From: Escherichia phage MRostami-2023e
Sequence record: OQ031495
Strand: one strand, 5' to 3'
DNA length: 64,000 nucleotides
In this document: positions 24,859-50,419 of the stretch, in pieces
Layout: each line of letters opens with the position of its first letter
Position numbering within the stretch: position 1 is the stretch's first letter
Notes under the pieces: model-generated
Told to the model about the DNA's origin: nothing
The model's database searches: none
Seen by the model: only the letters and a program-made list of their open reading frames with translations
Position numbers and translations under genes: made by a program

Positions 24859-25416
24859 ATGACTGAACAAAAACCTAAAAATAACTATGTGAATAATAAA
24901 GAGCTTCTCGCCGCTATAATCGAGTGGAAAAAGGAGCTCTTAAATAATAAAGACCCAAACAAAATTATTCGTCAGAATGATACCATCGGTTTAGCAATTA
25001 TGCTTATCGCCGAAGGCCTGTCCAAACGTTTCAACTTTTCAGGATATACCCAGTCTTGGAAGCAGGAGATGATTGCAGATGGGATTGAAGCCTCTATTAA
25101 GGGACTTCATAATTTCGACGAAACTAAGTACAATAACCCACATGCATACATAACTCGAGCTTGTTTTAATGCTTTTGTCCAACGTATCAAAAAAGAACGT
25201 AAGGAAGTTGCAAAGAAATATAGTTACTTCGTTCATAATGTCTACGACAGTCATGACGATGATATGGTAGCGTTGGTAGATGAAACGTTTATTCAAGACA
25301 TCTACGATAAAATGACGCATTATGAAGAATCCGCTTATAAAGCTCCTGGGGCTGAAAAGAAGGAAGTTGTTAGCGATTCGCCTAGTTTGGATTTTTTATA
25401 TGAGGATGACAATTGA
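24859..25416 (+). CDS. 55: Late-transcription sigma factor gp55
   Basis: ...[27 protein letters not shown]...[48 protein letters not shown]... matches T4 gp55. Confidence 0.92.
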
Positions 25417-25615
25417 CATCTCTAACTACTTAGAAGAACCTTTTGACGAAGCAATCCCTTATTTGGTAAAACTGTTGGGTCGTGAATTTAAAATTAATTT
25501 TGACATCGACCCTTTGAACCCACATGACGTGTCATTTTCGATAAATGGGACTCCGGTTGAGTACGAGTTCTGCATTGAAGAGGACGGACGTTTTTATTTT
25601 AATTTAATGAGATAA
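25406..25615 (+). CDS. Hypothetical protein
   Basis: 69-aa ORF, start overlaps the gene 55 end. Confidence 0.4.
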
Positions 25616-25616
25616 T

Positions 25617-25940
25617 ATGACTACCGAGATTATTGAAAATAAAGAAGCAGAAGATGCAGTAGCTAAAATGCTACAAGAAATCCAAAAGAAAAATGAAGCT
25701 GAAGCACGTAAAAAATCCGAAAAGATTCTTAAAAAGAATCGTTTTGAACTAAACCGTCTTTATGCTCATGCTCAAGAAGCAGCAATTCAAAACAACTTCG
25801 AAGCTTACGAATATGCTATTAAGAAATCTCGGGATATTCTACGACAACCATATAATGACAAGTTAATTAAAATCCAGTGGGTTACTACTCGTCAGGCTAT
25901 TGAGGACATCATTAATGGCGCTAGTTCAAACAAAGTTTAA
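25617..25940 (+). CDS. Hypothetical protein
   Basis: 107-aa ORF. Confidence 0.5.
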   Translation: MTTEIIENKEAEDAVAKMLQEIQKKNEAEARKKSEKILKKNRFELNRLYAHAQEAAIQNNFEAYEYAIKKSRDILRQPYNDKLIKIQWVTTRQAIEDIINGASSNKV

Positions 25941-26121
25941 ACGTCTTAAGCTGAATGCAGGGTTCACCCTTAAATTGGGAGGTCCTCTTTGTGTTAAAAT
26001 TTCTGAAAAGGAATATCACGACGGTTCTATTACAGAAATTTGTCCGCCTATTGTAAAGGCAGACCCAAAACAACTCGTATGGGTTGATTCATTTCAAGTT
26101 AAGAAATGGTGGAAACGATGA
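25915..26121 (+). CDS. Hypothetical protein
   Basis: 68-aa ORF. Confidence 0.4.
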   Translation: MALVQTKFKRLKLNAGFTLKLGGPLCVKISEKEYHDGSITEICPPIVKADPKQLVWVDSFQVKKWWKR

Positions 26122-26160
26122 GAGAAATCGATTTAGGCATTTTCTGAGAGGTGCTTATGC

Positions 26161-26334
26161 ATGACGAACATCCCGACTTCTGAAAATTTCGATAAAATCC
26201 GTAAAGGCAAAGCAGAAAGAATGAGACGTTTTAAAGAGTCTTATGATAAAGCTAAAGCCGAAGGAACTATTACGTACAAGCCCATTCGATTTAAAAGTTC
26301 AAATGAGCCTCTGTACGGTGTACTATGTGGATAG
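26161..26334 (+). CDS. Small hypothetical protein
   Basis: 57-aa ORF (MTNIPTSENFDKIRKGKAERMRRFKES...) with SD GAGAGG; terminator follows; below track cutoff. Confidence 0.35.
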   Translation: MTNIPTSENFDKIRKGKAERMRRFKESYDKAKAEGTITYKPIRFKSSNEPLYGVLCG

Positions 26335-26357
26335 GAACTCTTCGGAGTTCCTTTTTT
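26334..26357 (+). terminator. Rho-independent terminator
   Basis: GGAACTC ttcg GAGTTCC followed by TTTTTT. Confidence 0.65.
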
Positions 26358-26403
26358 GCTTTATAAACGGATGATAGAATGAATTAACTAATGAGGAAAT
26401 AAT

Positions 26404-27423
26404 ATGAAAATTTTGCACTTAGGCGATTGGCATTTAGGTGTTAAAGCCGATGATGAGTGGGTTCAATCTATTCAGCTGGATGGAATTAAACAAGCAATAG
26501 AATATTCTAAGAAAAACGGAATTACTGTATGGATTCAATACGGCGATATTTTTGATGTGCGAAAAGCAATCACACATAAAACTATGGAGTTCGCTCGTGA
26601 AATAGTTCAAATGCTTGATGATGCTGGTATTACCCTACATACTGTTGTAGGAAACCATGATATGCACTTTAAAAATACTTTAACTCCAAATGCTTCTACT
26701 GAGCTTTTGGCTAAATATCCTAATGTTAAAGTATATGATAAGCCAACTACTGTAGATTTTGACGGATGTCTGATTGATATCGTTCCATGGATGTGTGAAG
26801 AAAATACAGGTGAAATCTTAGAGCACATCAAGACTTCTTCCGCAGCGTATTGTGTTGGTCACTGGGAACTGAATGGCTTTTATTTCTATAAAGGAATGAA
26901 GTCTCATGGGCTTGAACCTGATTTCTTAAAGACTTATAAACAAGTCTGGTCTGGCCACTTCCACACAATCTCTGAAGCTGCTAACGTCAAATATATTGGG
27001 ACACCATGGACCCTTACTGCAGGTGATGAGAACGATCCGCGCGGATTCTGGGTATTTGACACTGATGTTGAACGTATGGAATTTATTCCTAATGAAACAA
27101 CATGGCATCGACGAATCACTTATCCGTTTAAAGGCAAAATTAATTATTCTGATTATACTAATCTAGCCGTACGTGTTATAGTATCAGAAATTGATTCAGA
27201 GTTGACTAAGTTTGAATCTGAACTTGAAAAAGTAGTTCACTCTCTTCGTATGGTTTCTAAAGTTGATAACAGTGTTGAATCTGATGACGACCAGGAAATC
27301 GAGATTAAATCACTTCAAGATATCATTAAAGAATATATTGACGCGATTCCAGATATCTCAGACGAAGACAGAGAAGCGCTGGTCAAATATTCCAACGAAC
27401 TTTATATTGAGGCAACACAATGA
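26404..27423 (+). CDS. 47: Recombination nuclease subunit gp47 (Mre11-like)
   Basis: MKILHLGDWHLG...GNHDMH...GHWELNG...GHFH phosphoesterase motifs; matches T4 gp47. Confidence 0.92.
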   Translation: MKILHLGDWHLGVKADDEWVQSIQLDGIKQAIEYSKKNGITVWIQYGDIFDVRKAITHKTMEFAREIVQMLDDAGITLHTVVGNHDMHFKNTLTPNASTELLAKYPNVKVYDKPTTVDFDGCLIDIVPWMCEENTGEILEHIKTSSAAYCVGHWELNGFYFYKGMKSHGLEPDFLKTYKQVWSGHFHTISEAANVKYIGTPWTLTAGDENDPRGFWVFDTDVERMEFIPNETTWHRRITYPFKGKINYSDYTNLAVRVIVSEIDSELTKFESELEKVVHSLRMVSKVDNSVESDDDQEIEIKSLQDIIKEYIDAIPDISDEDREALVKYSNELYIEATQ

Positions 27424-27677
27424 CTTTAGATGAATTTAACAATGCTGGACTCAACCTTGAAGTTGAAATTGACGTTAAAGATGATGATGGATTCGAGAAC
27501 ACTATCAAGTATTGGATTGAGCCATTACGCGTTGAAGGCAATGAAGTTAAAGCAGTTAATGTCTGCACCGACTGGGCTATTGAATTTAGCTTTAATATAA
27601 TGGACAACGATACTCCTGGCTCTATTCTTAAAATGGCTGAAGCGTGTATTGAGGATGCGTATAATGACGAAGACTGA
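27420..27677 (+). CDS. Hypothetical acidic protein
   Basis: 85-aa ORF. Confidence 0.5.
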   Translation: MTLDEFNNAGLNLEVEIDVKDDDGFENTIKYWIEPLRVEGNEVKAVNVCTDWAIEFSFNIMDNDTPGSILKMAEACIEDAYNDED

Positions 27678-33044: not shown

Positions 33045-35756
33045 ATGAAAGAATTTTACTTAACGGTTGAACAGATTGGTGATTCAATTTTTGAACGTTA
33101 CATCGATTCTAATGGCCGTGAACGTACTCGTGAAGTAGAATATAAACCATCACTGTTTGCTCATTGTCCAGAAAGTCAGGCTACGAAATATTTCGATATC
33201 TACGGTAAGCCGTGTACTCGTAAGTTGTTCGCCAATATGCGTGATGCCTCCCAATGGATTAAACGCATGGAAGATATCGGACTTGAAGCACTTGGCATGG
33301 ACGATTTCAAATTGGCGTATTTGTCTGACACTTATAACTATGAAATCAAATACGACCATACAAAAATTCGTGTGGCTAACTTCGACATCGAAGTAACATC
33401 TCCGGATGGGTTCCCTGAGCCTTCACAAGCAAAACATCCTATTGATGCTATCACCCATTATGACTCAATTGACGACAGGTTCTACGTATTTGATCTATTG
33501 AATTCTCCATATGGTAATGTAGAAGAATGGTCTATTGAAATCGCTGCTAAGCTTCAAGAACAAGGCGGTGATGAAGTTCCATCTGAAATTATCGATAAAA
33601 TCATTTATATGCCGTTCGATAACGAAAAAGAATTGTTGATGGAATATCTCAACTTCTGGCAACAGAAAACTCCTGTCATTTTGACTGGATGGAACGTTGA
33701 GTCATTTGATATTCCATATGTGTATAACAGAATCAAGAATATTTTTGGCGAATCTACTGCGAAACGGTTGTCACCACATCGTAAAACTCGTGTTAAAGTT
33801 ATCGAAAACATGTATGGTTCTCGTGAAATCATTACATTGTTCGGTATCTCTGTTCTTGATTACATTGACCTTTACAAAAAATTCTCTTTCACAAACCAAC
33901 CGTCGTATTCTCTGGATTACATTTCAGAATTTGAATTGAACGTTGGTAAACTGAAATATGACGGCCCTATTTCTAAGCTTCGTGAAAGCAATCACCAACG
34001 ATATATTTCTTATAACATTATCGACGTGTATCGTGTATTGCAAATTGATGCTAAGCGTCAGTTCATCAACTTGAGTTTAGACATGGGTTATTATGCTAAG
34101 ATACAGATTCAATCTGTGTTTAGCCCAATTAAAACATGGGATGCTATTATTTTTAATAGCCTTAAAGAGCAGAACAAGGTGATTCCACAAGGTCGTTCGC
34201 ATCCAGTTCAACCTTACCCGGGTGCTTTTGTTAAGGAACCTATTCCAAATCGATACAAATATGTAATGAGTTTCGACCTTACATCTCTGTATCCAAGTAT
34301 TATTCGCCAAGTGAATATTAGCCCAGAAACAATAGCAGGAACGTTTAAAGTAGCTCCATTGCATGATTATATTAACGCTGTTGCTGAACGTCCTTCAGAT
34401 GTGTACAGTTGCTCTCCTAACGGCATGATGTATTATAAAGACCGTGACGGTGTAGTTCCAACTGAAATCACTAAGGTCTTTAATCAACGTAAAGAACATA
34501 AAGGTTACATGCTTGCAGCTCAACGTAATGGTGAAATAATTAAAGAGGCATTGCATAATCCTAATCTTTCTGTTGACGAACCATTAGATGTTGATTATCG
34601 TTTCGACTTCAGCGATGAGATTAAAGAAAAGATTAAAAAGTTGTCTGCTAAATCTCTTAATGAAATGTTGTTTAGAGCTCAACGTACTGAAGTTGCAGGT
34701 ATGACTGCCCAAATTAACCGTAAATTGCTTATCAACTCACTTTATGGTGCACTTGGAAACGTTTGGTTCCGTTATTACGATTTGCGTAATGCAACTGCAA
34801 TCACAACATTTGGTCAAATGGCTTTACAGTGGATTGAACGTAAAGTTAATGAATATCTGAATGAAGTTTGTGGTACAGAAGGTGAAGCTTTCGTTCTTTA
34901 TGGTGATACAGACTCTATTTACGTATCTGCTGATAAAATTATCGATAAGGTTGGTGAATCTAAATTCCGTGATACTAACCATTGGGTAGACTTCTTAGAT
35001 AAGTTTGCACGTGAACGTATGGAACCAGCTATTGATAGAGGTTTCCGTGAAATGTGTGAATACATGAACAATAAACAACACTTAATGTTCATGGACCGAG
35101 AAGCTATCGCTGGTCCTCCACTCGGTTCTAAAGGTATTGGTGGATTCTGGACTGGTAAGAAACGTTATGCATTAAACGTGTGGGATATGGAAGGTACTCG
35201 TTACGCTGAGCCTAAACTCAAAATCATGGGTCTAGAGACTCAGAAATCTTCGACCCCTAAAGCAGTACAGAAAGCTCTTAAAGAATGTATTCGTCGTATG
35301 CTTCAAGAAGGTGAAGAATCATTACAAGAATATTTTAAAGAGTTTGAAAAAGAATTCCGTCAATTGAATTATATTAGCATCGCGTCGGTATCTTCTGCGA
35401 ATAACATTGCTAAATATGACGTCGGTGGATTCCCTGGTCCCAAATGCCCGTTCCATATTCGTGGAATTCTGACGTATAACCGGGCTATCAAAGGTAATAT
35501 CGATGCGCCGCAAGTTGTAGAAGGTGAAAAAGTATATGTTCTGCCTTTACGTGAAGGAAACCCATTCGGTGATAAATGTATCGCATGGCCTTCTGGTACT
35601 GAAATCACAGATTTAATTAAAGACGACGTACTTCATTGGATGGACTACACTGTTCTCCTTGAGAAGACATTTATTAAACCACTTGAAGGATTCACATCAG
35701 CAGCGAAACTCGATTACGAGAAGAAAGCATCTCTGTTCGATATGTTCGATTTTTGA
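33045..35756 (+). CDS. 43: DNA polymerase gp43 (family B)
   Basis: 903 aa; exonuclease FDIE, polymerase motifs SLYPSII and YGDTDS. Confidence 0.95.
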   Translation: MKEFYLTVEQIGDSIFERYIDSNGRERTREVEYKPSLFAHCPESQATKYFDIYGKPCTRKLFANMRDASQWIKRMEDIGLEALGMDDFKLAYLSDTYNYEIKYDHTKIRVANFDIEVTSPDGFPEPSQAKHPIDAITHYDSIDDRFYVFDLLNSPYGNVEEWSIEIAAKLQEQGGDEVPSEIIDKIIYMPFDNEKELLMEYLNFWQQKTPVILTGWNVESFDIPYVYNRIKNIFGESTAKRLSPHRKTRVKVIENMYGSREIITLFGISVLDYIDLYKKFSFTNQPSYSLDYISEFELNVGKLKYDGPISKLRESNHQRYISYNIIDVYRVLQIDAKRQFINLSLDMGYYAKIQIQSVFSPIKTWDAIIFNSLKEQNKVIPQGRSHPVQPYPGAFVKEPIPNRYKYVMSFDLTSLYPSIIRQVNISPETIAGTFKVAPLHDYINAVAERPSDVYSCSPNGMMYYKDRDGVVPTEITKVFNQRKEHKGYMLAAQRNGEIIKEALHNPNLSVDEPLDVDYRFDFSDEIKEKIKKLSAKSLNEMLFRAQRTEVAGMTAQINRKLLINSLYGALGNVWFRYYDLRNATAITTFGQMALQWIERKVNEYLNEVCGTEGEAFVLYGDTDSIYVSADKIIDKVGESKFRDTNHWVDFLDKFARERMEPAIDRGFREMCEYMNNKQHLMFMDREAIAGPPLGSKGIGGFWTGKKRYALNVWDMEGTRYAEPKLKIMGLETQKSSTPKAVQKALKECIRRMLQEGEESLQEYFKEFEKEFRQLNYISIASVSSANNIAKYDVGGFPGPKCPFHIRGILTYNRAIKGNIDAPQVVEGEKVYVLPLREGNPFGDKCIAWPSGTEITDLIKDDVLHWMDYTVLLEKTFIKPLEGFTSAAKLDYEKKASLFDMFDF

Positions 35757-35796: not shown

Positions 35797-36432
35797 ATGA
35801 AAACTACTCCTATTACTATCGCTATTGACGCAATCATAAAACAAGCTTCTTCTTTGGCCGCTATGGCCAAAGTAATTAGTCAAAACCCTGCTCGTTATAA
35901 TGCTATTCTAGAAACTCTTCGACGCCCTGGACTTAGTAATTATGAAAGCCGAGTAATTATTACAGGTGTTGGTAAGAATGCTAATATTGCAACTAAAGCG
36001 TCTGAGACATTTGCTTCACTCGGTATCCCGAGTATGTACTTGAACACTGGGCATTATTCTCACGGTGATGCAGGATTTATTGCGCCTAATGATGTGTTGA
36101 TTCATATTAGTCGTTCTGGTAAAACTGAAGAAATGATAGGCGTGGCTAAGCATCTTAAAATGATTCGCCCGAACGTCAAACAGATTCTGTTGCATTGTAA
36201 CCCAGACATTCCACAAGAATACGAAGCCCTTTTTGATTACTCTTTCTGTACAGGCATCGCGGTAGAAGTTGATGAGAATTCTCTGGCTCCGACTATGTCC
36301 ACTACATTGTTGTTAGCGCTTATCGATACGTTTGCTATCAACCTTTCGTCTGAACGTGGATTTACCTCTAATGACTTCCTTAAGTTCCACCCTGGCGGTG
36401 CACTAGGTGCCATGTTACGAGGCGAACAATGA
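35797..36432 (+). CDS. SIS-domain sugar-phosphate isomerase, KdsD/GutQ-like (putative D-arabinose-5-phosphate isomerase)
   Basis: VIITGVGKNANIA...GHYSHGDAG...HISRSGKTEE...LAPTMSTTLLLAL...HPGGALG align with the KdsD SIS domain as recalled; no CBS domains. Confidence 0.75.
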   Translation: MKTTPITIAIDAIIKQASSLAAMAKVISQNPARYNAILETLRRPGLSNYESRVIITGVGKNANIATKASETFASLGIPSMYLNTGHYSHGDAGFIAPNDVLIHISRSGKTEEMIGVAKHLKMIRPNVKQILLHCNPDIPQEYEALFDYSFCTGIAVEVDENSLAPTMSTTLLLALIDTFAINLSSERGFTSNDFLKFHPGGALGAMLRGEQ

Positions 36433-36572
36433 AAGCAATAACAATAGGACTTTTACTATTGATGCTTGTCATGACTATCTACTGGAGCTTAACGGCTCCA
36501 GTAATGATTCCAACACTTGTAATTGGATGGATTATGATTGGACTACAAGCAAAGTATGAATGCTTTAACTAG
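36429..36572 (+). CDS. Small hydrophobic protein
   Basis: 47-aa ORF with two hydrophobic stretches; below track cutoff. Confidence 0.3.
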   Translation: MKAITIGLLLLMLVMTIYWSLTAPVMIPTLVIGWIMIGLQAKYECFN

Positions 36573-36613
36573 AATAGTGTACAATACTCCTACTTACCAA
36601 TGAGGACCACAAC

Positions 36614-38299
36614 ATGAAAAAAGCTGTTATTCTTGGTGCTGGACTGGCAACTCGTTTGTATCCAATAACGCATCATATTCCTAAGGTGCTTGTTAACTAT
36701 AAACAAGACACTATTCTGAGCAATTTGTATACAATTTATTCTGACCTTGGCGCAGATGAAATTATTGTAGTAGTTCATTCAAAATTTGCTGAAACTGTTC
36801 GAGCTTATTGTGAGCAAGAAGGGTTCAATGTGACTATTCGTACAGTTGATGAAGCGTATGGTTCTGCTTATGCTCTTGCTAAATTACACAAAGATTTAGA
36901 CGGCCATAATGTAATTGTTAACTGGTGTGATATTATTCCGGATTTTGGTTCATGGTCTTGGAATGTTAACGCAATCTATGTTAAGGGTGACGAATGTCGA
37001 TATAATTTCGACGGTGAAAATATCACTAACGTAGGTTCAACAGGTGGTAATGTTGTAGGAATTTATCAGTTCAAAGACTGGGAATTCTATATGGGTTCTA
37101 CCGATGAGGAAATTCATGAATACTGCAAAGGACGTGATTTCGTAGAATTCCTTTACGGCAGCGCATTCAATAAATCAGAGCTTATGAATCTAATTGATTT
37201 AGGTGATATGCCTAAACTTGAAAAAGCTCATGAAGTTCGTGAACTTAATCGTAGTTTTAATGCAGTTGAAATTGGTGAAGAAACTGTAACTAAATTCGCA
37301 TTAACCGAACAGGGTCGAGCTCTTCAGAAAGATGAGATTTCATGGTATCTTAAAGTGAAATCAGATTCAGTTCCTCAGTTAGTTTCTGTTAATGAAAATA
37401 ACTTTGAAATGGAACGCATTAAAGGTAAGCCGGCATTTGAATATATTAAATCAAAATCAAGTCTTGCTCGTCCACAAATTATTGATGCAATTTTAGATGC
37501 ACTGAAATTCAGCACAGACACTTATTTTGTAAGTCCTGAAACTGTTCGCCGTGATTTCACTAAAGAATTCTATACGAAAGTTATTGATCGTTGTGAAAGT
37601 ATTCAACCATTGATTGATTCATTTGGTAAAATCACACATGTGAACTACACTAAGATTGGGCGTCTGAAGCCAATGTTGAAACAAGCTTTAGAACATCTTA
37701 TTCGTTATCATAACCGTTCTCAGGGACAGTACTCTGTTATTCACGGTGACCCGAACTTCAGTAATACTATGATTACTGATAACGGCGAAGTCAAGTTTAT
37801 CGACCCTCGTGGATATTTTGGCGAAACCAAGATTTACGGGCCAAAATTGTATGATGAAGCTAAAGTGCTTTATGCTGTTTCAGGTTATGATGAATTCAAT
37901 GCTAATCCGGCCTGGGGACAGTTTACTATTGATGAAACAACTTGTAATGTGACTATTAACATCAATCCATTAGTTTACAAATATGGAAAGATGAGTTCGT
38001 TTAACGAGTATCATCATTTGGCAGTGGCAATTATCTGGATTGCATTAGGTGGTTATTTCAAGAATAATCCACTTAAAGCGGTTGCCGCATATTATAAAGG
38101 TATGGAACTTCTGACTAAGCAATTACGTAACATGGGCCGTGTACTTCAAGACGGCTCTATTAGTTATGACGTAGCAGAACCTGTAACGGCTACTCTGATT
38201 ACAAAAAATCCGGGTAAATGGGTACTAACTGATAAAGAAACTGGTGTTTCCTATCGTCCAATCGGTGGCGATATCACTCATCAATGGGAACGAATCTAA
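36614..38299 (+). CDS. Bifunctional sugar-1-phosphate nucleotidyltransferase / sugar kinase
   Basis: N-terminal AVILGAGLATRL nucleotidyltransferase signature; C-terminal VIHGDPNFSN and VKFIDPRG kinase motifs (APH/choline-kinase type). Confidence 0.7.
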   Translation: MKKAVILGAGLATRLYPITHHIPKVLVNYKQDTILSNLYTIYSDLGADEIIVVVHSKFAETVRAYCEQEGFNVTIRTVDEAYGSAYALAKLHKDLDGHNVIVNWCDIIPDFGSWSWNVNAIYVKGDECRYNFDGENITNVGSTGGNVVGIYQFKDWEFYMGSTDEEIHEYCKGRDFVEFLYGSAFNKSELMNLIDLGDMPKLEKAHEVRELNRSFNAVEIGEETVTKFALTEQGRALQKDEISWYLKVKSDSVPQLVSVNENNFEMERIKGKPAFEYIKSKSSLARPQIIDAILDALKFSTDTYFVSPETVRRDFTKEFYTKVIDRCESIQPLIDSFGKITHVNYTKIGRLKPMLKQALEHLIRYHNRSQGQYSVIHGDPNFSNTMITDNGEVKFIDPRGYFGETKIYGPKLYDEAKVLYAVSGYDEFNANPAWGQFTIDETTCNVTININPLVYKYGKMSSFNEYHHLAVAIIWIALGGYFKNNPLKAVAAYYKGMELLTKQLRNMGRVLQDGSISYDVAEPVTATLITKNPGKWVLTDKETGVSYRPIGGDITHQWERI

Positions 38300-38685
38300 T
38301 GCACCGTGTAGAAAACATGCTTAATCTTTATTTTGATGTCGATGATTGTATAACAGAGTGGAATAACAATCGTGATTACGTGAACTTCAAGCCAGACGTC
38401 GAAATGGTGTCTGCCATTAATGCCCTGTATGATGCAGGGCATACCATAACGCTTTACACTGCTCGCGGTATGAAGTCAGTAGGTCCTGGACGTATAGCAA
38501 TTGACATTCTCCCAAGTCTGATTCAGAACTTGGCAAACATTGGCTTGAAGTACCATAATTTGCTAACACATAAACCAGTATATGATTGGATTATCGACGA
38601 CAAAGCTATGCGTCCTGACGAATTCAAAGCTCTTATGAATAAAGGCGAATTCGAAACATTTAAATCATATAAACCGAATCTATAA
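38299..38685 (+). CDS. Small HAD-like phosphatase (KdsC-like)
   Basis: LYFDVDDCITEW (DxD motif I), ITLYTARG (motif II), HKP...WIIDDKA (K and DD motifs); 128 aa. Confidence 0.5.
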   Translation: MHRVENMLNLYFDVDDCITEWNNNRDYVNFKPDVEMVSAINALYDAGHTITLYTARGMKSVGPGRIAIDILPSLIQNLANIGLKYHNLLTHKPVYDWIIDDKAMRPDEFKALMNKGEFETFKSYKPNL

Positions 38686-38742
38686 TAATTTAAGTAAGAC
38701 CTGCAAAAACCATCGCATCAATTAACGTGAGATGCAAAAAAA

Positions 38743-39903
38743 ATGAATACTTTTAAAATCGGAACGAATTTTGATTTAGCTCTTCTTGATAAAATCGTAG
38801 AGCTCAATAAAACTTATCCTAATAGCTTGATAAACGAAGTATACGGCTCTACAAGAGAAATGGCTTTTGTAGCAGCCAGACCTGATTTTAGGCTTCCTGA
38901 CGTTGACAAAAAGATGTTAGAAGATTACGTTAAACGTTGTAACGAATTAGGTATTTGCTTTAACTATACACTCAACACGATAAATCCGGGTTCAAAAAGA
39001 GAACTAGTTGAGTGGAAGAAGAAAGCTATTCAGGACTATGTTCAGTATCTTTGGTCAATAGGCGTATGGCGTATTACTATCGCTAACCCTGTTGTTATGG
39101 AAATTGTTCGTGAAGTCAATAAAGACATTGAGATTGAAGTTTCAACAATTCTACATGTCGATGCTGTAACTCAAATCAAATACTTGCATGACCAGTATAA
39201 TATCAAAAAGGTCTGCTGTGGAATTCATAAGAACCGTTCAGTTTCTTTCCTGAAGCGTGCAGCAGAGTTTTGCAATAAGAACAATATAATATTTGAAGTT
39301 CTTGTAAATGAGTTCTGTTCTAATGCTGGTAAAGGGTATACAACACATTGTAGCTATCGTGACTCTTGCTATATTTTCCATAGTACTGATGTTACAGCTG
39401 ATGATGCTAAATCCTTAAATGGATATCCTATGCAGCACTGTATTAAAGCTCGTGATACAGACCCATTTAACTGGTTGAGAACTCGTTTTGTTCGTCCACA
39501 AGATTTGAAACTTTATAATGATATTGGTATCACTCAATTTAAAGTTTCGGGACGTACAGGTAGCACAGACTACATTTTGAAAGTTCTTGAAGCATACGCT
39601 TCTGAAAAGTTTGAAGGTAATTTGTTAGAATTGTGGAAGCCTTTAGAGACCATTTTCACTCTTGAAAATGAGACCGAGTTTTCACATACGGTAAATATTG
39701 AAACCTCTTTGTTAGATGGCTTTTTAGAAAAAAGGTGGTTCAGACATCCAGATTTCGATTGTGCTAATGAAATCTGCGGGACGACGTGTACATATTGTGA
39801 AAGATATTATAAACGTCAGTTATCTAAAAACGGGTTAGCAGAAAACTCTATATCTATTATTGATATAACTAACTCTGATGACGCTTTGAGGTACCCGGAA
39901 TGA
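38743..39903 (+). CDS. Cys-rich hypothetical protein (possible U32-like Fe-S fold)
   Basis: 386 aa; EVLVNEFCSNAGKGYTTHCSYRDSC and C-terminal CANEICGTTCTYC clusters. Confidence 0.5.
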   Translation: MNTFKIGTNFDLALLDKIVELNKTYPNSLINEVYGSTREMAFVAARPDFRLPDVDKKMLEDYVKRCNELGICFNYTLNTINPGSKRELVEWKKKAIQDYVQYLWSIGVWRITIANPVVMEIVREVNKDIEIEVSTILHVDAVTQIKYLHDQYNIKKVCCGIHKNRSVSFLKRAAEFCNKNNIIFEVLVNEFCSNAGKGYTTHCSYRDSCYIFHSTDVTADDAKSLNGYPMQHCIKARDTDPFNWLRTRFVRPQDLKLYNDIGITQFKVSGRTGSTDYILKVLEAYASEKFEGNLLELWKPLETIFTLENETEFSHTVNIETSLLDGFLEKRWFRHPDFDCANEICGTTCTYCERYYKRQLSKNGLAENSISIIDITNSDDALRYPE

Positions 39904-40139
39904 TTTCTAGAAAAACTTTTAATTATAATCTTAACGAAGAGATTTTGACTATTAAACTGAACACTAACGAACAAATTCTTAAAAAGGCCCTTATGGGCCT
40001 GTTTGAAACCAAAGCGGCTAAAGTGATTAAAGAACCTGTTCAATTGGAATACTACACTGATGCATTCCTTCATAGTGTTCTTGGAAGTATAGATTCTGAA
40101 GCTTTACGTTATATCAACATTGCCAAGAAATTCAAATAA
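39900..40139 (+). CDS. Hypothetical protein
   Basis: 79-aa ORF. Confidence 0.45.
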   Translation: MISRKTFNYNLNEEILTIKLNTNEQILKKALMGLFETKAAKVIKEPVQLEYYTDAFLHSVLGSIDSEALRYINIAKKFK

Positions 40140-40180: not shown

Positions 40181-40897
40181 ATGGGAAAACATAACACAAT
40201 GAAATATATCAAAGCCGCAGATTTTCAAACCGCATTTAAAGCAGTCAATCGTGAAATTTTAGAAAACCCGGAATTCGTAACTGATTCTCGTATTGGACGT
40301 TGTAATGAAATTGGGTCTATGACAGTAGTTGTTGACACTCCATCATCATTCAAAATGACCGACCCACGTATTAACCGCATCTCTTATGAATATGCCGAAG
40401 ACTTCTGGAAGTTTATGATTTCTGGTGGTACTGATGCAGAAGAAGCGTTTAAGGCATATCCTAATGTCGCTAAATTTATTTCTAAACCTAAATCAGACGC
40501 TTTGCCTGCAAACTTCAACACTTTCTACGGTCCTCGCATTGCGGCCCAATTACCGGCTCTTCTAAAAGAACTTAAAGAGAAGCCTAACTCTCGAAGAGTT
40601 GTGTTCCAAATTCTAGAAAGTTCTGATCAGGCTTTGCTTGATTCGGACGAAACGCTTGAATATCCATGTACTGACTCAGTGACTTATTATATTCGCGATG
40701 GTAAGCTTTATACCCACTGTCATATGCGTTCTCAGAACTGTGCTGTTGTTATGCAGTTGGATTTTTATCTCCAAGGAAAATTACTTCATTATATCGCTAA
40801 CGAATGTGGTGTAGAAGTTGGTGATTATACTCATACCATGGTAAGTGCCCATGTGTTTGAACGTGATTTTGATTATGTTAAAGGGTTTCTTGACTAA
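40181..40897 (+). CDS. 42: dCMP hydroxymethylase (thymidylate-synthase fold)
   Basis: TS-like core with nucleophile Cys in YPCTDSVTYY and RSQNCAVVMQLDF carrying Asp at the pyrimidine-specificity position; T4 gene 42 position. Confidence 0.7.
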   Translation: MGKHNTMKYIKAADFQTAFKAVNREILENPEFVTDSRIGRCNEIGSMTVVVDTPSSFKMTDPRINRISYEYAEDFWKFMISGGTDAEEAFKAYPNVAKFISKPKSDALPANFNTFYGPRIAAQLPALLKELKEKPNSRRVVFQILESSDQALLDSDETLEYPCTDSVTYYIRDGKLYTHCHMRSQNCAVVMQLDFYLQGKLLHYIANECGVEVGDYTHTMVSAHVFERDFDYVKGFLD

Positions 40898-41796
40898 TGG
40901 CTATTTTCCGCGTACCTATTTTGAGTATGCGGTCTTATGAAACTGGACAGTATGCTATCCTTAAGGATGGCAACTTCCAACTTCATTTGCACCGTGCTAA
41001 TCCAGGCGATGTGATTACATATCCACGTAATGCATCTGATATTAAAGAATGTGAACGTCTTTTCCCAGAATTTAAGTTTGTTCCATTATGGTATAAAGAT
41101 AACGCGTATAACACTCGTAAATATTTCTGGTCTGAAAATGAATTTGTGGTTGATTCATTAATTGCTTATTATGATTGTGATTTTCTAATCACAGATATCA
41201 CTGGATATGATGGCGCTTTTGACGTAGAATTCAATTTCAATATCACTGCAGACCCTAATAAACCACGTTTTTATATTGACGAATTCTTAAAAACCGACAT
41301 GTTGTCGGTTAATCGTTCACTTCAAACTACTGTGTTGAATGAACGTCAAAAAGAAGTGCTGGTTAACGCAGGTGCAGATGGTAATAAGATTATCGTAACG
41401 CAGAAAGTTATACGTCCTTCCGTCATGCAGCGTCTTGTAGGTGATTTGGCTCCTATTCATCTAGATGGTATTTTTCATCCATTTCGAATTAGTGACCCAT
41501 GCTATCGTTTTGAACAAGTTGTTGAATGCGCAATTCAATTAGGTCAACCGCTTTATATAACTGATCCAAATAATAGTTTCGACAGAAATAAGTATCCTGA
41601 AGAAGCGCTGATTCGAATTTTTAATCCAACTAAAACTGAGTACTATCAAATTCTTAAAGGACGTCCGAAGATTCAATATTTCGAAAATCCTGAAGAAGTA
41701 TTCCATCCAGGTCTTGGTGAGTTCATCTACTTTAACGCTTTAATTTCTTCGCCGTATAATATACCTAAATACGAAGATGTCGTAATCGAGGAATAA
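40897..41796 (+). CDS. Hypothetical protein at the T4 beta-glucosyltransferase position
   Basis: 299-aa ORF, no resemblance to T4 Bgt by eye. Confidence 0.5.
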   Translation: MAIFRVPILSMRSYETGQYAILKDGNFQLHLHRANPGDVITYPRNASDIKECERLFPEFKFVPLWYKDNAYNTRKYFWSENEFVVDSLIAYYDCDFLITDITGYDGAFDVEFNFNITADPNKPRFYIDEFLKTDMLSVNRSLQTTVLNERQKEVLVNAGADGNKIIVTQKVIRPSVMQRLVGDLAPIHLDGIFHPFRISDPCYRFEQVVECAIQLGQPLYITDPNNSFDRNKYPEEALIRIFNPTKTEYYQILKGRPKIQYFENPEEVFHPGLGEFIYFNALISSPYNIPKYEDVVIEE

Positions 41797-41797
41797 A

Positions 41798-42346
41798 ATG
41801 GCTAAAATTATTTTAGTAGATGGCCCAGATAATGCTGGTAAAACAACTTTCATTAATGACATAATGGAAATTAGTGAAAGATATGTAAAGATTGATTTCC
41901 CTAAACGAACAGTTGATGGACGTTTCGATGTTAAGTCTCGAAATGAAGTTGGCTGTTTCGAAACGATGTTGAATTATTTAGACCCTACTAAGATTTATCT
42001 GTTAGACCGTGGATATATTAGTAACTGGGTTTATGGACGTATTCGACAAGATGCGGATTCGGTTCTTGACGTTTATGAACAGGATTATATTCGTCTTTGC
42101 CAAAACCATGATGTGTTCACAATTATTTTAACACGTAACGAAATGACTGAAAGTTTTGAAGACGACCTTATTACTTTGTCTTCATTCGGTTTTAATACAG
42201 TCATTTCACATTTTGAAGAGTTTGCAATTCATAACAAAATCCAAACGTATCAATTACTTAATCATGATGGTGCTAACAAAGTTATAGGATTTAATGCAAG
42301 CGAACGTAATGATTTGATTACAGAAATCATCAAATGGGCTCGTTAA
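41798..42346 (+). CDS. P-loop kinase-like protein
   Basis: ILVDGPDNAGKTT Walker A near N-terminus, 182 aa. Confidence 0.5.
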   Translation: MAKIILVDGPDNAGKTTFINDIMEISERYVKIDFPKRTVDGRFDVKSRNEVGCFETMLNYLDPTKIYLLDRGYISNWVYGRIRQDADSVLDVYEQDYIRLCQNHDVFTIILTRNEMTESFEDDLITLSSFGFNTVISHFEEFAIHNKIQTYQLLNHDGANKVIGFNASERNDLITEIIKWAR

Positions 42347-42444: not shown

Positions 42445-43617
42445 ATGTCTGATTTAAAATCTCGTCTGATTAAAGCTTCTACTTCTAAAATGACTGCAGA
42501 CTTGACTAAGTCTAAGCTGTTTAATAATCGTGATGAAGTCCCTACTCGTATTCCGATGTTGAATATCGCACTAGGTGGTGCTCTGAATGCAGGATTGCAA
42601 TCAGGCTTGACTATTTTTGCTGCTCCTTCTAAACACTTTAAAACGTTGTTTGGGCTGACTATGGTCGCAGCGTATATGAAGAAATATAAAGATGCAATCT
42701 GTTTGTTTTATGACTCAGAATTCGGTGCTTCAGAATCTTATTTTCGTTCAATGGGTGTTGATTTAGACCGTGTAGTTCATACTCCGATTCAATCTGTCGA
42801 ACAACTTAAAGTTGATATGACTAATCAGCTTGACGCGATTGAACGCGGTGATAAAGTTATTATCTTTATCGATTCAATTGGTAATACTGCATCTAAGAAA
42901 GAAACCGAAGATGCGTTGAACGAGAAAGTTGTAGGTGATATGTCTCGTGCTAAGGCACTTAAATCTCTTTTCCGTATTGTGACTCCTTATCTGACTATTA
43001 AAGATATTCCGTGTGTTGCAATCAACCATACAGCAATGGAAATCGGCGGACTATATCCTAAAGAGATTATGGGTGGCGGTACAGGTATTCTTTACTCTGC
43101 TAACACTGTATTCTTTATCTCTAAACGTCAGGTTAAAGAAGGTACAGAATTGACCGGTTATGACTTCACGTTGAAAGCAGAAAAATCTCGTACAGTTAAA
43201 GAGAAATCTACTTTCCCGATCACGGTTAATTTTGATGGCGGTATTGATCCATTCAGTGGCTTGTTAGAAATGGCAACTGAAATTGGTTTTGTAGTTAAGC
43301 CTAAAGCTGGTTGGTATGCTCGTGAATTCCTTGACGAAGAAACAGGTGAAATGATTCGTGAAGAGAAATCGTGGCGTGCTAAAGCTACTGATTGTGTAGA
43401 ATTCTGGGGTCCGTTGTTTAAACACAAACCTTTCCGAGATGCAATTGAAACTAAATATAAACTAGGTGCTATCTCTTCTATTAAAGAAGTTGATGACGCT
43501 GTTAATGACCTTATTAATTGCAAAGCAACAACTAAAGTTCCTGTTAAAACTTCTGATGCTCCGTCTGCAGCAGATATAGAAAACGACCTTGACGAAATGG
43601 AAGATTTCGATGAATAA
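42445..43617 (+). CDS. uvsX: Recombinase UvsX (RecA-like)
   Basis: MSDLKSRLIKAS...IPMLNIALGG...FAAPSKHFKT...; 390 aa, matches T4 UvsX. Confidence 0.95.
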   Translation: MSDLKSRLIKASTSKMTADLTKSKLFNNRDEVPTRIPMLNIALGGALNAGLQSGLTIFAAPSKHFKTLFGLTMVAAYMKKYKDAICLFYDSEFGASESYFRSMGVDLDRVVHTPIQSVEQLKVDMTNQLDAIERGDKVIIFIDSIGNTASKKETEDALNEKVVGDMSRAKALKSLFRIVTPYLTIKDIPCVAINHTAMEIGGLYPKEIMGGGTGILYSANTVFFISKRQVKEGTELTGYDFTLKAEKSRTVKEKSTFPITVNFDGGIDPFSGLLEMATEIGFVVKPKAGWYAREFLDEETGEMIREEKSWRAKATDCVEFWGPLFKHKPFRDAIETKYKLGAISSIKEVDDAVNDLINCKATTKVPVKTSDAPSAADIENDLDEMEDFDE

Positions 43618-46701: not shown

Positions 46702-47070
46702 ATGAAAAAATTAATCGCTTTAGCAATGGTATTCGGATTAACCGGATGTGGTGCCCATGGCTTTATCCCTAATAACGTTGGCCAACTGATTTACAATCCA
46801 AATGTTAAACAGTATGACCAACCTAAAGTTGAAGTGGAAGACCCAGTTACTGTAGGTAATCGAATGATTCAAGCTGATGCTCATGCTCAACGTTATCGTG
46901 ACTCTGATACTGTAGCATTGTCAAAAGAACAACGCGTTAAAGAACATTGTCTACAGGCTACTGAAATCGCATTCATTCGCTATGTTGAAACAACCGGTAA
47001 AGAGCCTACCCAGAAACAAATCGCGAATAACTACATCCAGTGTATTGAACGTTTAAACAAATTTAACTAA
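46702..47070 (+). CDS. Putative lipoprotein
   Basis: Signal peptide with lipobox-like LTGC. Confidence 0.5.
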   Translation: MKKLIALAMVFGLTGCGAHGFIPNNVGQLIYNPNVKQYDQPKVEVEDPVTVGNRMIQADAHAQRYRDSDTVALSKEQRVKEHCLQATEIAFIRYVETTGKEPTQKQIANNYIQCIERLNKFN

Positions 47071-47131
47071 TTGGTTTACGCCAAAGCCAAAACAAGATAT
47101 TATAAACATAACAAATCAAGAGGAAATTAAC

Positions 47132-47380
47132 ATGGAATTATTCGTAGCTAGTTCAATAGCAGTTTTAATCGCAGGTATTGGTTCAATCATCATTTACATG
47201 TTGCCTTGGGTAATCGCACTTATTCGTGGCACAAAAAGCACAACAGCAATCTTCTTTGTATCTTTACTCTTTAACTGGACGATGGTTGGTTGGATTGGAA
47301 CTTTAATTTGGTCTATCGTTGCCGAAAAGAAATCTGCTCAGCAGCCTCAACAAGTAATTATTATTCGCGAAAAAGAATAA
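47132..47380 (+). CDS. Small membrane protein
   Basis: Two hydrophobic helices, 82 aa. Confidence 0.5.
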   Translation: MELFVASSIAVLIAGIGSIIIYMLPWVIALIRGTKSTTAIFFVSLLFNWTMVGWIGTLIWSIVAEKKSAQQPQQVIIIREKE

Positions 47381-47413: not shown

Positions 47414-47443
47414 TAGTCCTATCAAATCAACTAAGGAGTTAAA

Positions 47444-47737
47444 ATGAAAAAGTTATCATTGGCAGCAATCTTACTTGCAGTATCATGTGCACCAGCTCCA
47501 GTTACGGCAGGTTATGATAAAGACCTCTGTGAGTGGTCAATGACTGCAAATCAAGAAGATGTTGAACAACAAATCTTCTCTGATATCATGAACATCACTA
47601 AACGAGACCGTCCTAATATGGTTAATAAAGTTGTTGAACAACTTAAGTCTGGCGGTATCATGCAGTACAATTATGTTTTGTATTGTGACCCTAATTTCGA
47701 TAACAAAGATATCGTAACCGAAATCACAGGTGAATAA
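47444..47737 (+). CDS. sp: Secreted protein, possibly Spackle-like
   Basis: 97-aa ORF with signal peptide MKKLSLAAILLAVSCAPAPVTA, between 41 and 61 where T4 sp lies; assigned by size and position only. Confidence 0.4.
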   Translation: MKKLSLAAILLAVSCAPAPVTAGYDKDLCEWSMTANQEDVEQQIFSDIMNITKRDRPNMVNKVVEQLKSGGIMQYNYVLYCDPNFDNKDIVTEITGE

Positions 47738-47738
47738 T

Positions 47739-48389
47739 ATGATTTATTACATGCACAAAAACGCACCATTTAAATATGGTAAATTTCCTAATGCACAATG
47801 TTATAATATAACGCCGAATGAAAATAATAACGGATACCATATTGGTGTAATTTTTGTAATTGTTAAAGATAACGAAATCGTTGCCTGGGCAGATTTTAAA
47901 GGTACAACATATGATGTTAATCCTGTGCCTTTCACGTATTACAATATAATGGATTTGGCATATGATTATAATTGGTTTACTCATGACACGTTGGCTCATA
48001 TTGAAGGTGTAGGATTTGACATCTCTTATTCTAGTTATTCATTATGTCCTATGAGCCGAGCTCACGGTAAAGATGTATCATATCTTTCAATTCGGAAACG
48101 TGTAAACTTCAAACGTAGCACAGAGTATGTTGGTGGACTCTTTGTTAAAGATAATAAAATAATCCGTATTAGTTATCCTTTAAGTGTAGGTCAAAAAGAT
48201 GTTGATGTTGATTTAGACTTAACCGAAAATAACATTAATCGTATTGCTTCTGTATATTTTGATATCGATGAAAAAATTGTAGTGTGTGGATACGAATTAC
48301 CACCTGAAGAAAAGGCTGAAGCAATTGAAGTCGAATTAGAAATTTCTGTTGATGACCAAATATTTAATGCATTTATGAATCGAGGTTAA
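47739..48389 (+). CDS. Hypothetical protein
   Basis: 216-aa ORF. Confidence 0.5.
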   Translation: MIYYMHKNAPFKYGKFPNAQCYNITPNENNNGYHIGVIFVIVKDNEIVAWADFKGTTYDVNPVPFTYYNIMDLAYDYNWFTHDTLAHIEGVGFDISYSSYSLCPMSRAHGKDVSYLSIRKRVNFKRSTEYVGGLFVKDNKIIRISYPLSVGQKDVDVDLDLTENNINRIASVYFDIDEKIVVCGYELPPEEKAEAIEVELEISVDDQIFNAFMNRG

Positions 48390-48390
48390 A

Positions 48391-48588
48391 ATGACTACTG
48401 CAATTTGCACTGGTTCTAAAATTAGTGTTTTTACAAGTTTTGAAGATTATGAAGTTGTTTCAAAACACCAATACCATATTAGCGTAAAAGCTAATGATGG
48501 GGTAATTTGGAATATTCCACAGTATGAAGGCACTACATATGAAGTCACAGATATAAATGGTGACAAAGCAATCTTTGTAATTGATTAA
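48391..48588 (+). CDS. Hypothetical protein
   Basis: 65-aa ORF. Confidence 0.45.
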   Translation: MTTAICTGSKISVFTSFEDYEVVSKHQYHISVKANDGVIWNIPQYEGTTYEVTDINGDKAIFVID

Positions 48589-48607
48589 ATATACTCAGGA
48601 GGTACCT

Positions 48608-49075
48608 ATGGGTATTATTAACACTGCAATAGATTCTGTTTATGCATATAAGTTTATTCGACTAATGCAAAAACCTTTTACCGAATGGAAAGCATACGAA
48701 GCCAAAATCATCGATGAACGTGGAAGTGTTCTTAAACGTCCTTCTACTCCCGAAGAAAAAGCGGCGTATACACCTTTTCATGCTTCAGTTCGTTCAATGA
48801 AGCGAATGATGAGCACTGTTCCAGGTCTTAATGGAATGGCCTCAATGATGTCTGCCTGGAGTGCTGTAGCTTCACGCTATAACATTACGGAAGAACAACA
48901 GAAAGAAATATTTAAAGAACTCCCTTTATTTGAGGATATGGTTGCTGGTGATTCAGGTGGCAACCCTCAAGCTATTGCATCAGGAACTACTTCAGGTGCA
49001 GTCGTAAATAAAGGTCCAGAACAAATTCCTTCCAAGAAAAGAAAGCGAATTAAAGTAAATATTAATAAGTTGTGA
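48608..49075 (+). CDS. Hypothetical protein
   Basis: 155-aa ORF with SD AGGAGG. Confidence 0.5.
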   Translation: MGIINTAIDSVYAYKFIRLMQKPFTEWKAYEAKIIDERGSVLKRPSTPEEKAAYTPFHASVRSMKRMMSTVPGLNGMASMMSAWSAVASRYNITEEQQKEIFKELPLFEDMVAGDSGGNPQAIASGTTSGAVVNKGPEQIPSKKRKRIKVNINKL

Positions 49076-49114
49076 TATGATGGCCTTAAATTAATAAGGC
49101 CTCTGGAGAATACT

Positions 49115-50137
49115 ATGGCTGAATGGATAGATAATGAATTTGCTTATCGTGCGTTTTCTCACCTACCTCGTTTTAGACAAATCAATAATTCAAGCACATT
49201 TAAATTAACATTTCGATGTCCAGTTTGTGGCGACTCCCAGACAGATGCAATGAAAGCTCGCGGATGGTATTATGGCGGTACTCCTGGTAATGTACATTGT
49301 TATAACTGTCAATACCATAATACAATTTCCGGATACTTAAAAGAGTATGATGAAGAGCTTTATCGTGAGTATCTAATGGAAGTTCGTAAAGAAAAAGCTA
49401 GAATGGAACCAAAGATTGAAAAGGTTTCTGAACATAAACCAGAACCGGAGAAAAAGACTATAAATTCTTTGCCGTCTTGTTCTCGTCTGGACAAGCTGCC
49501 TGAAGAGCATCCTATTGTGAAATATGTTAAGTCTAGATGCATTCCTAAAGAATCATGGAACAGATTATGGTTCACATTAGAATGGCCTAAATTGGTCAAC
49601 AAGATTCAACCTGGTACGTATAAGAAAGAGATTCCCGAACCACGTTTAGTTATTCCTATTTTTAATAAAGATGGGAAGGCCGAGTCATTTCAAGGACGTG
49701 CACTTCGTAAAGATGCTCCTCAGAAATATATCACTATTAAAGCGTTTGAGTCTGCAACAAAAATTTATGGTGTTGAACGTGTTAAGGAAGGAGACGTCTG
49801 GGTAATGGAAGGCCCTATTGATAGTTTATTCATACCCAATGCAATCGCTATTACAGGCGGCTCAATAGATTTAGATGTGGTACCATTTAAAGAGCGTCGG
49901 GTATGGGTAATGGATAATGAACCTAGGCATCCGGATACTATAGCTCGTATGAAGCGATTAGTTGATGCAGGCGAACGTGTCATGTTCTGGGACCGAGCTC
50001 CATGGAGATCAAAGGATGTGAATGATATGGTAATGAAAGAAAATGCAACACCACAAGAAATTTTAGAATATATGAAACAGAATATTTCAAGTGGGTTGCA
50101 TGCTAAAATGAGATTATCTCGTTATTCGAAGATTTAA
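49115..50137 (+). CDS. 61: DNA primase gp61
   Basis: N-terminal zinc ribbon CPVCGDS...CYNC and TOPRIM region; matches T4 gp61. Confidence 0.9.
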   Translation: MAEWIDNEFAYRAFSHLPRFRQINNSSTFKLTFRCPVCGDSQTDAMKARGWYYGGTPGNVHCYNCQYHNTISGYLKEYDEELYREYLMEVRKEKARMEPKIEKVSEHKPEPEKKTINSLPSCSRLDKLPEEHPIVKYVKSRCIPKESWNRLWFTLEWPKLVNKIQPGTYKKEIPEPRLVIPIFNKDGKAESFQGRALRKDAPQKYITIKAFESATKIYGVERVKEGDVWVMEGPIDSLFIPNAIAITGGSIDLDVVPFKERRVWVMDNEPRHPDTIARMKRLVDAGERVMFWDRAPWRSKDVNDMVMKENATPQEILEYMKQNISSGLHAKMRLSRYSKI

Positions 50138-50331
50138 ACAAGCCCTATAATAGCAAAGGCCAAATCAACTACAGTATCCAATGGAACAGAAGGAACTATA
50201 ATACCATGGGCAACTAACAATGGTGCAATCCCGAAGTTCCATGAAATAATGCCACCTACAACTATTGCAGCGATAGCAGTTTTCTTTTTATTGCCTTTAA
50301 TAGCGTTGATTAACGATGGAAGTTTAAACAT
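50134..50331 (-). CDS. Small membrane protein (only convincing minus-strand gene)
   Basis: 65-aa ORF, two hydrophobic helices; reverse-strand SD GGAGA 7 nt before ATG; sits in the 61-56 intergenic gap. Confidence 0.45.
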   Translation of the reverse strand: MFKLPSLINAIKGNKKKTAIAAIVVGGIISWNFGIAPLLVAHGIIVPSVPLDTVVDLAFAIIGLV

Positions 50332-50362
50332 AATATCTCCTTAGTTACCTATTATTTATTAC

Positions 50363-50386
50363 GCTTTATAAAATTAATGTTAGAAT
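50363..50386 (+). promoter_or_regulatory. Candidate middle promoter for gene 56
   Basis: GCTTTA 50363-50368, 12-bp spacer, TAGAAT 50381-50386. Confidence 0.4.
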
Positions 50387-50419
50387 TAACTCTCTTATAC
50401 TGAATTGAAAGGAAAAATA

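Follow-up and report, generated by a model that had tools for sequence, protein, structure and literature searches.

RB69-type arabinosyl-5-hydroxycytosine modification very probably replaces the T4 glucosyl-hydroxymethylcytosine system in an Escherichia phage

In the virion DNA of phage RB69, mono- and di-arabinosylated 5-hydroxycytosine stands fully in place of cytosine (PMC13326640). A second group has described the same modification for phage NP, which also belongs to the genus Mosigvirus, and has called an earlier assignment as arabinosyl-5-hydroxymethylcytosine erroneous (PMC13390438). It has likewise been stated explicitly that RB69 has no homologs of the T4 glucosyltransferase genes a-gt and b-gt (PMC6024577). 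The exchange of one modification system for another is accordingly not new: it has been documented since 2018, with publications from 2018 to 2026 on RB69, HY126 and NP. Here, we analyze a stretch of 64,000 nucleotides from Escherichia phage MRostami-2023e (sequence record OQ031495), referred to as the window in the following. An initial annotation of this stretch had noted that a-gt, b-gt and the methyltransferase gene dam are missing from their T4 positions, and had proposed that the modification system was swapped rather than supplemented.

The window comes from a T4-like coliphage in the RB69 group (genus Mosigvirus), of which it represents the early/replication region. It shares 99.5% identity with Escherichia phage vB_EQ1 and 97–98% identity with JS09, PhAPEC2 and about 150 other records, and it is collinear with positions 105083–169083 of JS09. 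Our analyses make it highly probable that it carries RB69-type (Mosigvirus) arabinosyl-5-hydroxycytosine hypermodification in place of the T4 system, which is built on glucosylated 5-hydroxymethylcytosine (hmC). The initial annotation even understated this exchange, as the base has changed as well as the sugar. Such a modification governs the sensitivity of the DNA to type IV restriction enzymes, DNA glycosylases and CRISPR, and also the genetic isolation from T4; furthermore, identifying the system lets annotators name about ten 'hypothetical' genes correctly. In the following, coordinates refer to the window and features lie on the plus strand, unless stated otherwise.

The modified base and its sugar

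Where T4 has gene 42, the window encodes a protein (40181–40897) which Pfam assigns to the thymidylate-synthase family, but which has only 25% identity to T4 gp42. Instead, it matches the crystallized HY126 enzyme (PDB 9iqc) across all of its 238 residues with an E-value of 4.5e-162. Its RB69 counterpart, gp48, converts dCMP to 5-hydroxy-dCMP with flavin and O2, and 18O from O2 enters the product; moreover, nuclear magnetic resonance (NMR) and mass spectrometry (MS) of the RB69 nucleoside place the ether link straight at C5 (PMC13326640). In place of an orthologous gp42 dCMP hydroxymethylase, the window hence encodes the ThyA homolog of the RB69/HY126 system, a predicted 5-hydroxy-dCMP synthase. 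Judged by these matches, the base itself is exchanged, being 5-hydroxycytosine and not hmC. The assumption of the initial annotation that gene 42, and hence hmC, was kept does not hold for a protein this distant from gp42 and nearly identical to its HY126 counterpart. As the base is exchanged, glucosyl-hmC-specific enzymes are the wrong probe, and glucosyl-hmC-specific reagents in general will not work on such DNA.

It could be argued that hmC was nevertheless retained, i.e. that the gene-42 product is a functional dCMP hydroxymethylase and only the sugar has changed, which would yield arabinosyl-hmC. This is what Thomas et al. reported for RB69 in 2018 (PMC6024577), and the family membership of the protein and its position fit such a role. 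The low identity to gp42 speaks against it, however, as do the incorporation of 18O by RB69 gp48, the ether directly at C5 and the judgment of the second laboratory on the hmC assignment (PMC13390438), so that we regard arabinosyl-hmC as highly improbable.

In T4, gene 42 is followed by b-gt, segA and uvsX. In the window, uvsX (42445–43617; 68% identity to T4 UvsX) forms the right flank of the b-gt slot, and two open reading frames (ORFs) separate it from the synthase gene: one of 299 amino acids (aa; 40897–41796; RB69 gp46:47) and one for a 182-aa thymidylate-kinase-like nucleotide kinase (41798–42346; RB69 gp45; phrog_761, 1.9e-45; Table 1 of PMC13326640). The initial annotation had described them as a 299-aa ORF and a P-loop kinase, neither resembling Bgt. 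On the level of sequence, this is correct, as neither of them resembles Bgt or Agt in BLAST, phmmer or hhalign comparisons. In its fold, however, the product of the 299-aa ORF is a GT-B glycosyltransferase; a profile search of its family against the PDB sequences gave nothing useful, and only the fold comparison identified it. The b-gt slot does hold a transferase, which the initial annotation had missed, namely the proposed first DNA arabinosyltransferase (GT1; PMC13326640).

The sugar is probably supplied by a cassette located between gene 43, the DNA polymerase gene (33045–35756), and the synthase gene. Its first gene (35797–36432; RB69 gp55) encodes a predicted arabinose-5-phosphate isomerase, which matches Pfam SIS as well as the NCBIfam models KpsF/GutQ (2.7e-32) and KdsD (1.2e-30), and which would form arabinose-5-phosphate from ribulose-5-phosphate, the role given in PMC13326640. 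It is followed by a putative bifunctional sugar kinase/UDP-arabinose pyrophosphorylase (36614–38299; RB69 gp52:53, HY126 AfhE), an intact ORF of 561 aa with an N-terminal NTP_transferase match, a C-terminal kinase-like match and a match to PDB 1jyk, and by a HAD-type phosphatase (38284–38685; RB69 gp51, HY126 AfhF) with matches to phrog_1238 (1.7e-42) and to the capsule biosynthesis phosphatase family TIGR01689 (6.9e-13). These three genes are ordered as RB69 gp55, gp52:53 and gp51 and fit the published UDP-arabinofuranose pathway (PMC13326640); for HY126 AfhE and AfhF, the activity steps leading to UDP-arabinofuranose are referred to as shown in the account given there. The cassette continues with a U32-family protein (38743–39903; RB69 gp50) with a Peptidase_U32 domain and a 79-aa ORF (39900–40139; RB69 gp49; phrog_8601), which overlaps the stop codon of the U32 gene (ATGA).

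While GT1 adjoins the synthase, another GT-B glycosyltransferase (62595–63695; 366 aa; RB69 ORF003c/gp3) is encoded after gene 39, between that gene and rIIA.1. It matches the HY126 glycosyltransferase PDB 9iqz with an E-value of 6.3e-251 and is, according to the published assignment, the proposed arabinosyltransferase 2 (GT2; PMC13326640, PMC6024577).

These components suggest the following sequence of events. The dCTPase gp56 would deplete dCTP, the thymidylate-synthase homolog would convert dCMP to 5-hydroxy-dCMP with flavin and O2, and a phage dNMP kinase would phosphorylate this product, so that it replaces cytosine in the DNA; these steps have been demonstrated experimentally in close relatives. 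The remaining ones follow from homology, synteny and the published model: the isomerase, the bifunctional enzyme and the HAD phosphatase would turn ribulose-5-phosphate into UDP-arabinofuranose, the GT-B protein in the former b-gt slot would attach the first arabinose to the 5-hydroxyl, and the 366-aa GT-B protein would add the second one. The end product would be DNA with mono- and di-arabinosyl-5-hydroxycytosine.

Several points weigh against this reading of the window. The chemistry of this particular isolate rests on 97–100% protein identity to characterized relatives, and the absence of Agt, Bgt and Dam beyond the window rests on vB_EQ1 as a 99.5%-identical relative. Single glycosyltransferases of Acinetobacter phage DLP3 were inactive in vitro on DNA containing 5-hydroxycytosine (PMC13326640). 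Lastly, neither the U32 protein nor its 79-aa neighbor nor the kinase of 182 aa has an assigned role. As far as the sugar is concerned, the notion of a swapped rather than supplemented system nevertheless stands, given the cassette, the GT-B gene after gene 39 and the reports on related phages (PMC6024577, PMC13326640, PMC13390438); it does not extend to Dam, as discussed below.

Two further observations concern the surroundings of these genes. The sugar cassette sits where imm stood: in T4 and in phage JS98, imm adjoins gene 43, whereas in the window, imm.1 and imm are found at 46702–47380, between 61.4 and sp. The topoisomerase gene 39 is a single ORF of 605 aa (60735–62552), which spans the split genes 39 and 60 of T4 and contains neither the mobA/60.1 insertion nor the translational-bypass segment. 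Such an unsplit gene 39 without the insertion is known for RB69.

The a-gt and dam slots and the genome-wide search

The two other slots have contracted. In T4, the genes 47.1, a-gt, mobB and a-gt.2–5 precede gene 55, and the interval between genes 47 and 55 measures 3152 bp; in the window, it measures only 987 bp. It is flanked by gene 55, encoding the late sigma factor (24859–25416; 91% identity to T4 gp55; annotated accordingly in JS09), on the left and by gene 47 (26404–27423; 85% identity to T4 gp47) on the right. In between lie small ORFs without any a-gt among them, as the initial annotation had observed, although it had counted three where there are four. These are the orthologs of a-gt.5, a-gt.4, a-gt.3 and a-gt.2, in that order (25406–25615, 25617–25940, 25915–26121 and 26161–26334; 47–76% identity in blastp; Pfam DUF5491 and DUF2654). 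In a DNA alignment, the sole difference to T4 in this slot is one clean indel of 2.25 kb, which corresponds to T4 positions 36450–38701 and comprises 47.1, a-gt and mobB.

A similar picture emerges for dam, which in T4 lies between genes 56 and 61. The corresponding interval spans 1149 bp in T4 and 267 bp in the window, between the primase gene 61 (49115–50137; 74% identity to T4 gp61) on the left and gene 56 (50420–50941) on the right. The latter encodes the dCTPase characteristic of the T4-type system (72% identity to T4 gp56, E-value 3.7e-82), which clears dCTP so that only modified cytosine is incorporated. As previously described, all that remains between them is a single small membrane ORF on the minus strand (50134–50331; 65 aa, hydrophobic by its hydropathy profile; RB69ORF029w; phrog_2024, 1.9e-27), and dam is gone. 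The 65-aa ORF has a homolog in T4, which lies in the gap between dam and 61 (17747–17935, plus strand; 54% identity, E-value 2e-19); the dam slot therefore differs from that of T4 by a clean, dam-sized indel. In the T4 record NC_000866, this homolog is unannotated and falls within a seemingly 'empty' dam–61 gap.

For the whole-genome searches, we combined the window with the complete genome of vB_EQ1 (167,790 bp), which stands in for the remaining ~104 kb of the genome under study. T4 Agt, Bgt and Dam were searched with tblastn and with phmmer --max against all six-frame ORFs of at least 40 aa. With these tools, no homolog of Agt and none of Bgt was found in the window or in vB_EQ1, and no match of the three queries was better than E 0.056, while the positive controls gp56 (3.7e-82) and gp42 (7.6e-10) were detected; for Dam-family proteins, the best E-values lay between 1.2 and 2.4. 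Likewise, the annotation of vB_EQ1 lists neither a methyltransferase nor a glucosyltransferase. The window contains eight masked runs of N (1680–2119, 3983–4184, 6057–6318, 6463–6470, 8191–8530, 15169–15195, 18442–18626 and 20641–20813), amounting to 1637 bases. They all lie upstream of the range 24859–50405, in which the absence had been noted, and the longest one measures 440 nt, so that no single run is long enough for a gene of the size of dam, agt or bgt. At the matching positions of the unmasked vB_EQ1, no homolog of these genes is found. The observation that the three genes are not at their syntenic positions is thus borne out for every slot, and the suggested tblastn search as well as an inspection of the masked runs have turned up none of them elsewhere. 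Going by the window and its close relative, the entire genome contains no a-gt, b-gt or dam, and the gaps at a-gt and dam are clean indels between conserved flanks.

With regard to Dam, we find no exchange of the kind seen for the sugar. A motif scan for N6-methyltransferases of the DPPY type among the vB_EQ1 ORFs of at least 100 aa yielded no credible candidate: the pattern [DNS]PP[YFW] occurs in three unrelated proteins, in each case at the extreme C-terminus and without a motif for binding S-adenosylmethionine (SAM). The initial annotation had counted Dam as part of the swapped system, but neither the homology searches nor the motif scan nor the vB_EQ1 annotation provide a substitute methyltransferase. 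By these sequence-based measures, Dam is simply absent, and nothing replaces it. This is also the case in many other T4-like phages, according to a tblastn search of phage records, in which Dam homologs are found in 760 of 50,697 records. Their identity bands match Tequatrovirus (T4/T2-type), Karam/Slopek-type and RB49-type phages, and none of the Mosigvirus accessions from our window searches is among the sampled rows of these matches.

One might be tempted to view the scarcity of GATC as a result of the loss of Dam. With 38 occurrences where 212 are expected, GATC is more strongly depleted in the window than any other tetranucleotide, and it also ranks first in the vB_EQ1 genome, with observed/expected ratios between 0.18 and 0.23 for the two and of 0.23 for vB_EQ1. 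Yet it holds the same rank in the first 45 kb of T4, which does have Dam (0.37 versus 0.23). We therefore reject this idea; the lack of Dam does not account for the depletion.

The evidence assembled here also bears on two other ways to account for the empty slots. In one of them, agt, bgt or dam would have been relocated, either to another part of the genome or into the masked runs. It is true that the window covers just 64 kb of about 168 kb and that 1637 of its bases are masked, but the complete genome of vB_EQ1 gives no acceptable match, the masked runs are short and lie outside all three slots, and the Dam matches in the phage records fit other genera; relocation consequently has next to no probability in our eyes. 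In the other one, Dam would have been swapped as well, with N6-methyladenine (6mA) being maintained by an unrecognized, non-Dam-like methyltransferase among the small hypothetical ORFs. Many ORFs indeed have no known function, and a related phage, Thanatos, has a 6mA methylase of its own that is specific for ATC. However, the few motif matches in vB_EQ1 do not resemble a methyltransferase, none is annotated there, and the dam slot is a clean deletion, which leaves this explanation very unlikely. We thus return to RB69-type arabinosylation, accompanied by the plain absence of Dam, as the preferred reading.

The U32 protein as a candidate second hydroxylase

The U32 protein of the cassette possesses both the domain and the fold of the Peptidase_U32 family. 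In Table 1 of PMC13326640, RB69 gp50 is merely listed as 'sugar or heterocycle reductase', and it is never discussed in the text. None of the characterized U32 proteins is a peptidase: 5-hydroxycytidine in 23S rRNA requires RlhA, 5-hydroxyuridine (ho5U) in tRNA requires TrhP, and the anaerobic hydroxylation of ubiquinone requires UbiU/UbiV. They all depend on Fe-S clusters and prephenate, which has been shown to be the oxygen donor in the UbiU/UbiV pathway and has been proposed to be the donor for RlhA and TrhP. For ho5U, Escherichia coli even has two redundant routes, one through the O2-dependent TrhO and one through the prephenate-dependent TrhP. By analogy to this TrhO/TrhP pair, we tentatively suggest that the phage U32 protein may be a prephenate-dependent, O2-independent C5-hydroxylase and provide a second, anaerobic route to 5-hydroxycytosine; we consider this a serious possibility, albeit short of a probable one. 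The synthase needs O2 and gp56 destroys dCTP, so that a phage in the anaerobic gut would lack cytosine nucleotides without a second route.

Several observations are in line with this idea. Ten cysteines are invariant over 32 U32 homologs that diverge to 46% identity. Of the four E. coli paralogs, RlhA gives the best alignment to the phage clade (E 2e-5 over 203 columns), followed by TrhP (0.003) and UbiU (0.011). The CX6C pair of RlhA aligns with the invariant C203/C209, whereas the other two canonical Fe-S cysteines are not cleanly aligned. Furthermore, U32 is accompanied on its downstream side by a gene for type II chorismate mutase (CM_2, above the Pfam gathering cutoff), the prephenate-forming enzyme, in all seven other phages that we sampled: Entb_45 and PEi26 (Kanagawavirus), F48 (Marfavirus), X20 (Winklervirus), TG1 (Tegunavirus), Pm5461 (Bragavirus) and Shewanella phage Thanatos-2. 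The AroQ catalytic residues of these mutases are invariant. The mutase gene follows directly, except in TG1 and Pm5461, where it is the second gene downstream, and in five of the seven phages it overlaps the 3' end of U32, by 4 nt each; the two genes are thus translationally coupled in related genera. Beyond the window, vB_EQ1 also encodes a DAHP synthase, with which the shikimate pathway begins (88003–88992 of its genome, minus strand; AroFGH equivalog, 427 bits versus a cutoff of 173), and which adjoins the dCMP deaminase gene.

The distribution of these genes points in the same direction. DAHP synthase occurs in 212 phage records and U32 in 221, and the two distributions mirror each other almost genus by genus. 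Distant U32 homologs from metagenomes (46–58% identity) are located on phage-like contigs in seven of seven cases, in replication or nucleotide-metabolism modules with neighbors such as dCMP deaminase, dNK/NT5C and a DAHP_synth_1 gene. On one of these contigs (SRR33454321_1371, an unrelated phage-like sequence of 61 kb, positions 6001–8000), the U32 homolog overlaps a TAGT-type DNA glycosyltransferase, with dUTPase/DCD and UDP-galactopyranose mutase nearby and no ThyA homolog within the 13-kb stretch examined; judging by this gene content, it may represent a different glycosylated-hydroxypyrimidine system with U32 as its only hydroxylase.

Other findings count against a hydroxylase role. Phage JS98 infects E. 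coli without a U32 module, a few records labeled Acinetobacter carry a DAHP synthase, and only two canonical Fe-S cysteines align confidently. In addition, this phage has no chorismate mutase of its own: a search of the whole genome with a profile HMM built from phage chorismate mutases gave no match, and prephenate would therefore have to come from the host enzymes PheA/TyrA. The slot that is held by chorismate mutase in other genera is filled by the 79-aa ORF, which we rejected as a diverged chorismate mutase after searches with Pfam, NCBIfam, BLASTP and hhalign. The idea that the presence of U32 tracks the oxygen lifestyle of the host is only partly supported: U32 is rare or absent in Acinetobacter phages (57 of their records contain GT1, whereas for U32 Acinetobacter is not one of the ten commonest names), but the E. 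coli Dhakavirus JS98 lacks U32 too.

A literature search, to which He et al. (HY126) and Mahler et al. 2025 did not belong, found no link between U32 proteins and phage DNA modification. If the proposed role is correct, the U32 clade would constitute a widespread, unrecognized class of DNA-base hydroxylases and carry prephenate-dependent hydroxylation beyond RNA and quinones to DNA; together with chorismate mutase and DAHP synthase, it would also explain how these gut phages replicate anaerobically.

Comparison with known systems

Among the E. coli hydroxylation enzymes TrhO, TrhP and RlhA, the U32 members share their domain and fold with the phage U32 protein, which has many invariant cysteines and aligns best with RlhA. 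The dual route is mirrored insofar as U32 is paired with chorismate mutase in related phages and is found alongside an O2-dependent enzyme for the same base. RlhA and TrhP, however, act on RNA, whereas the phage protein would act on a deoxynucleotide or on DNA; it is also much shorter than RlhA, to which just two of its Fe-S cysteines can be aligned with confidence.

Among phages, DLP3 and JS98 have the synthase, GT1, the kinase, the phosphatase, the bifunctional enzyme and the isomerase in common with the window. Unlike the window, their clusters lack the U32 gene; JS98 also lacks chorismate mutase, as well as DAHP synthase at the syntenic place, and DLP3 has a third glycosyltransferase and tri-arabinosylated cytosine.

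The T4 system follows the same logic, in that the dCTPase gp56 and a thymidylate-synthase homolog act ahead of replication to provide dCMP oxygenated at C5, and the DNA is subsequently glycosylated by GT-B transferases. The flanking genes 55, a-gt.2–5, 47, 43, uvsX, 61 and 56 are common to both. The two systems differ in their chemistry, with a 5-hydroxymethyl group from folate chemistry in T4 and a 5-hydroxyl group from flavin/O2 chemistry here, and in their sugar, which is taken from host UDP-glucose in T4, whereas arabinofuranose would be produced here by a phage-encoded pathway. Moreover, the transferases are unrelated in sequence, and Dam is found only in T4.

Closest by far are RB69, HY126 and NP (PMC13326640, PMC6024577, PMC13390438), which belong to the same genus and have the same gene order and 97–100% protein identity. 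They share the synthase, the arabinose-5-phosphate isomerase, the bifunctional enzyme, the phosphatase, the U32 protein, the kinase and both glycosyltransferases, with GT1 in the b-gt slot and GT2 behind gene 39. The window has single, intact ORFs for GT1 and the bifunctional enzyme, which are split in the RB69 reference record; the authors ascribe this to sequencing errors (PMC13326640). The systems do not differ in substance.

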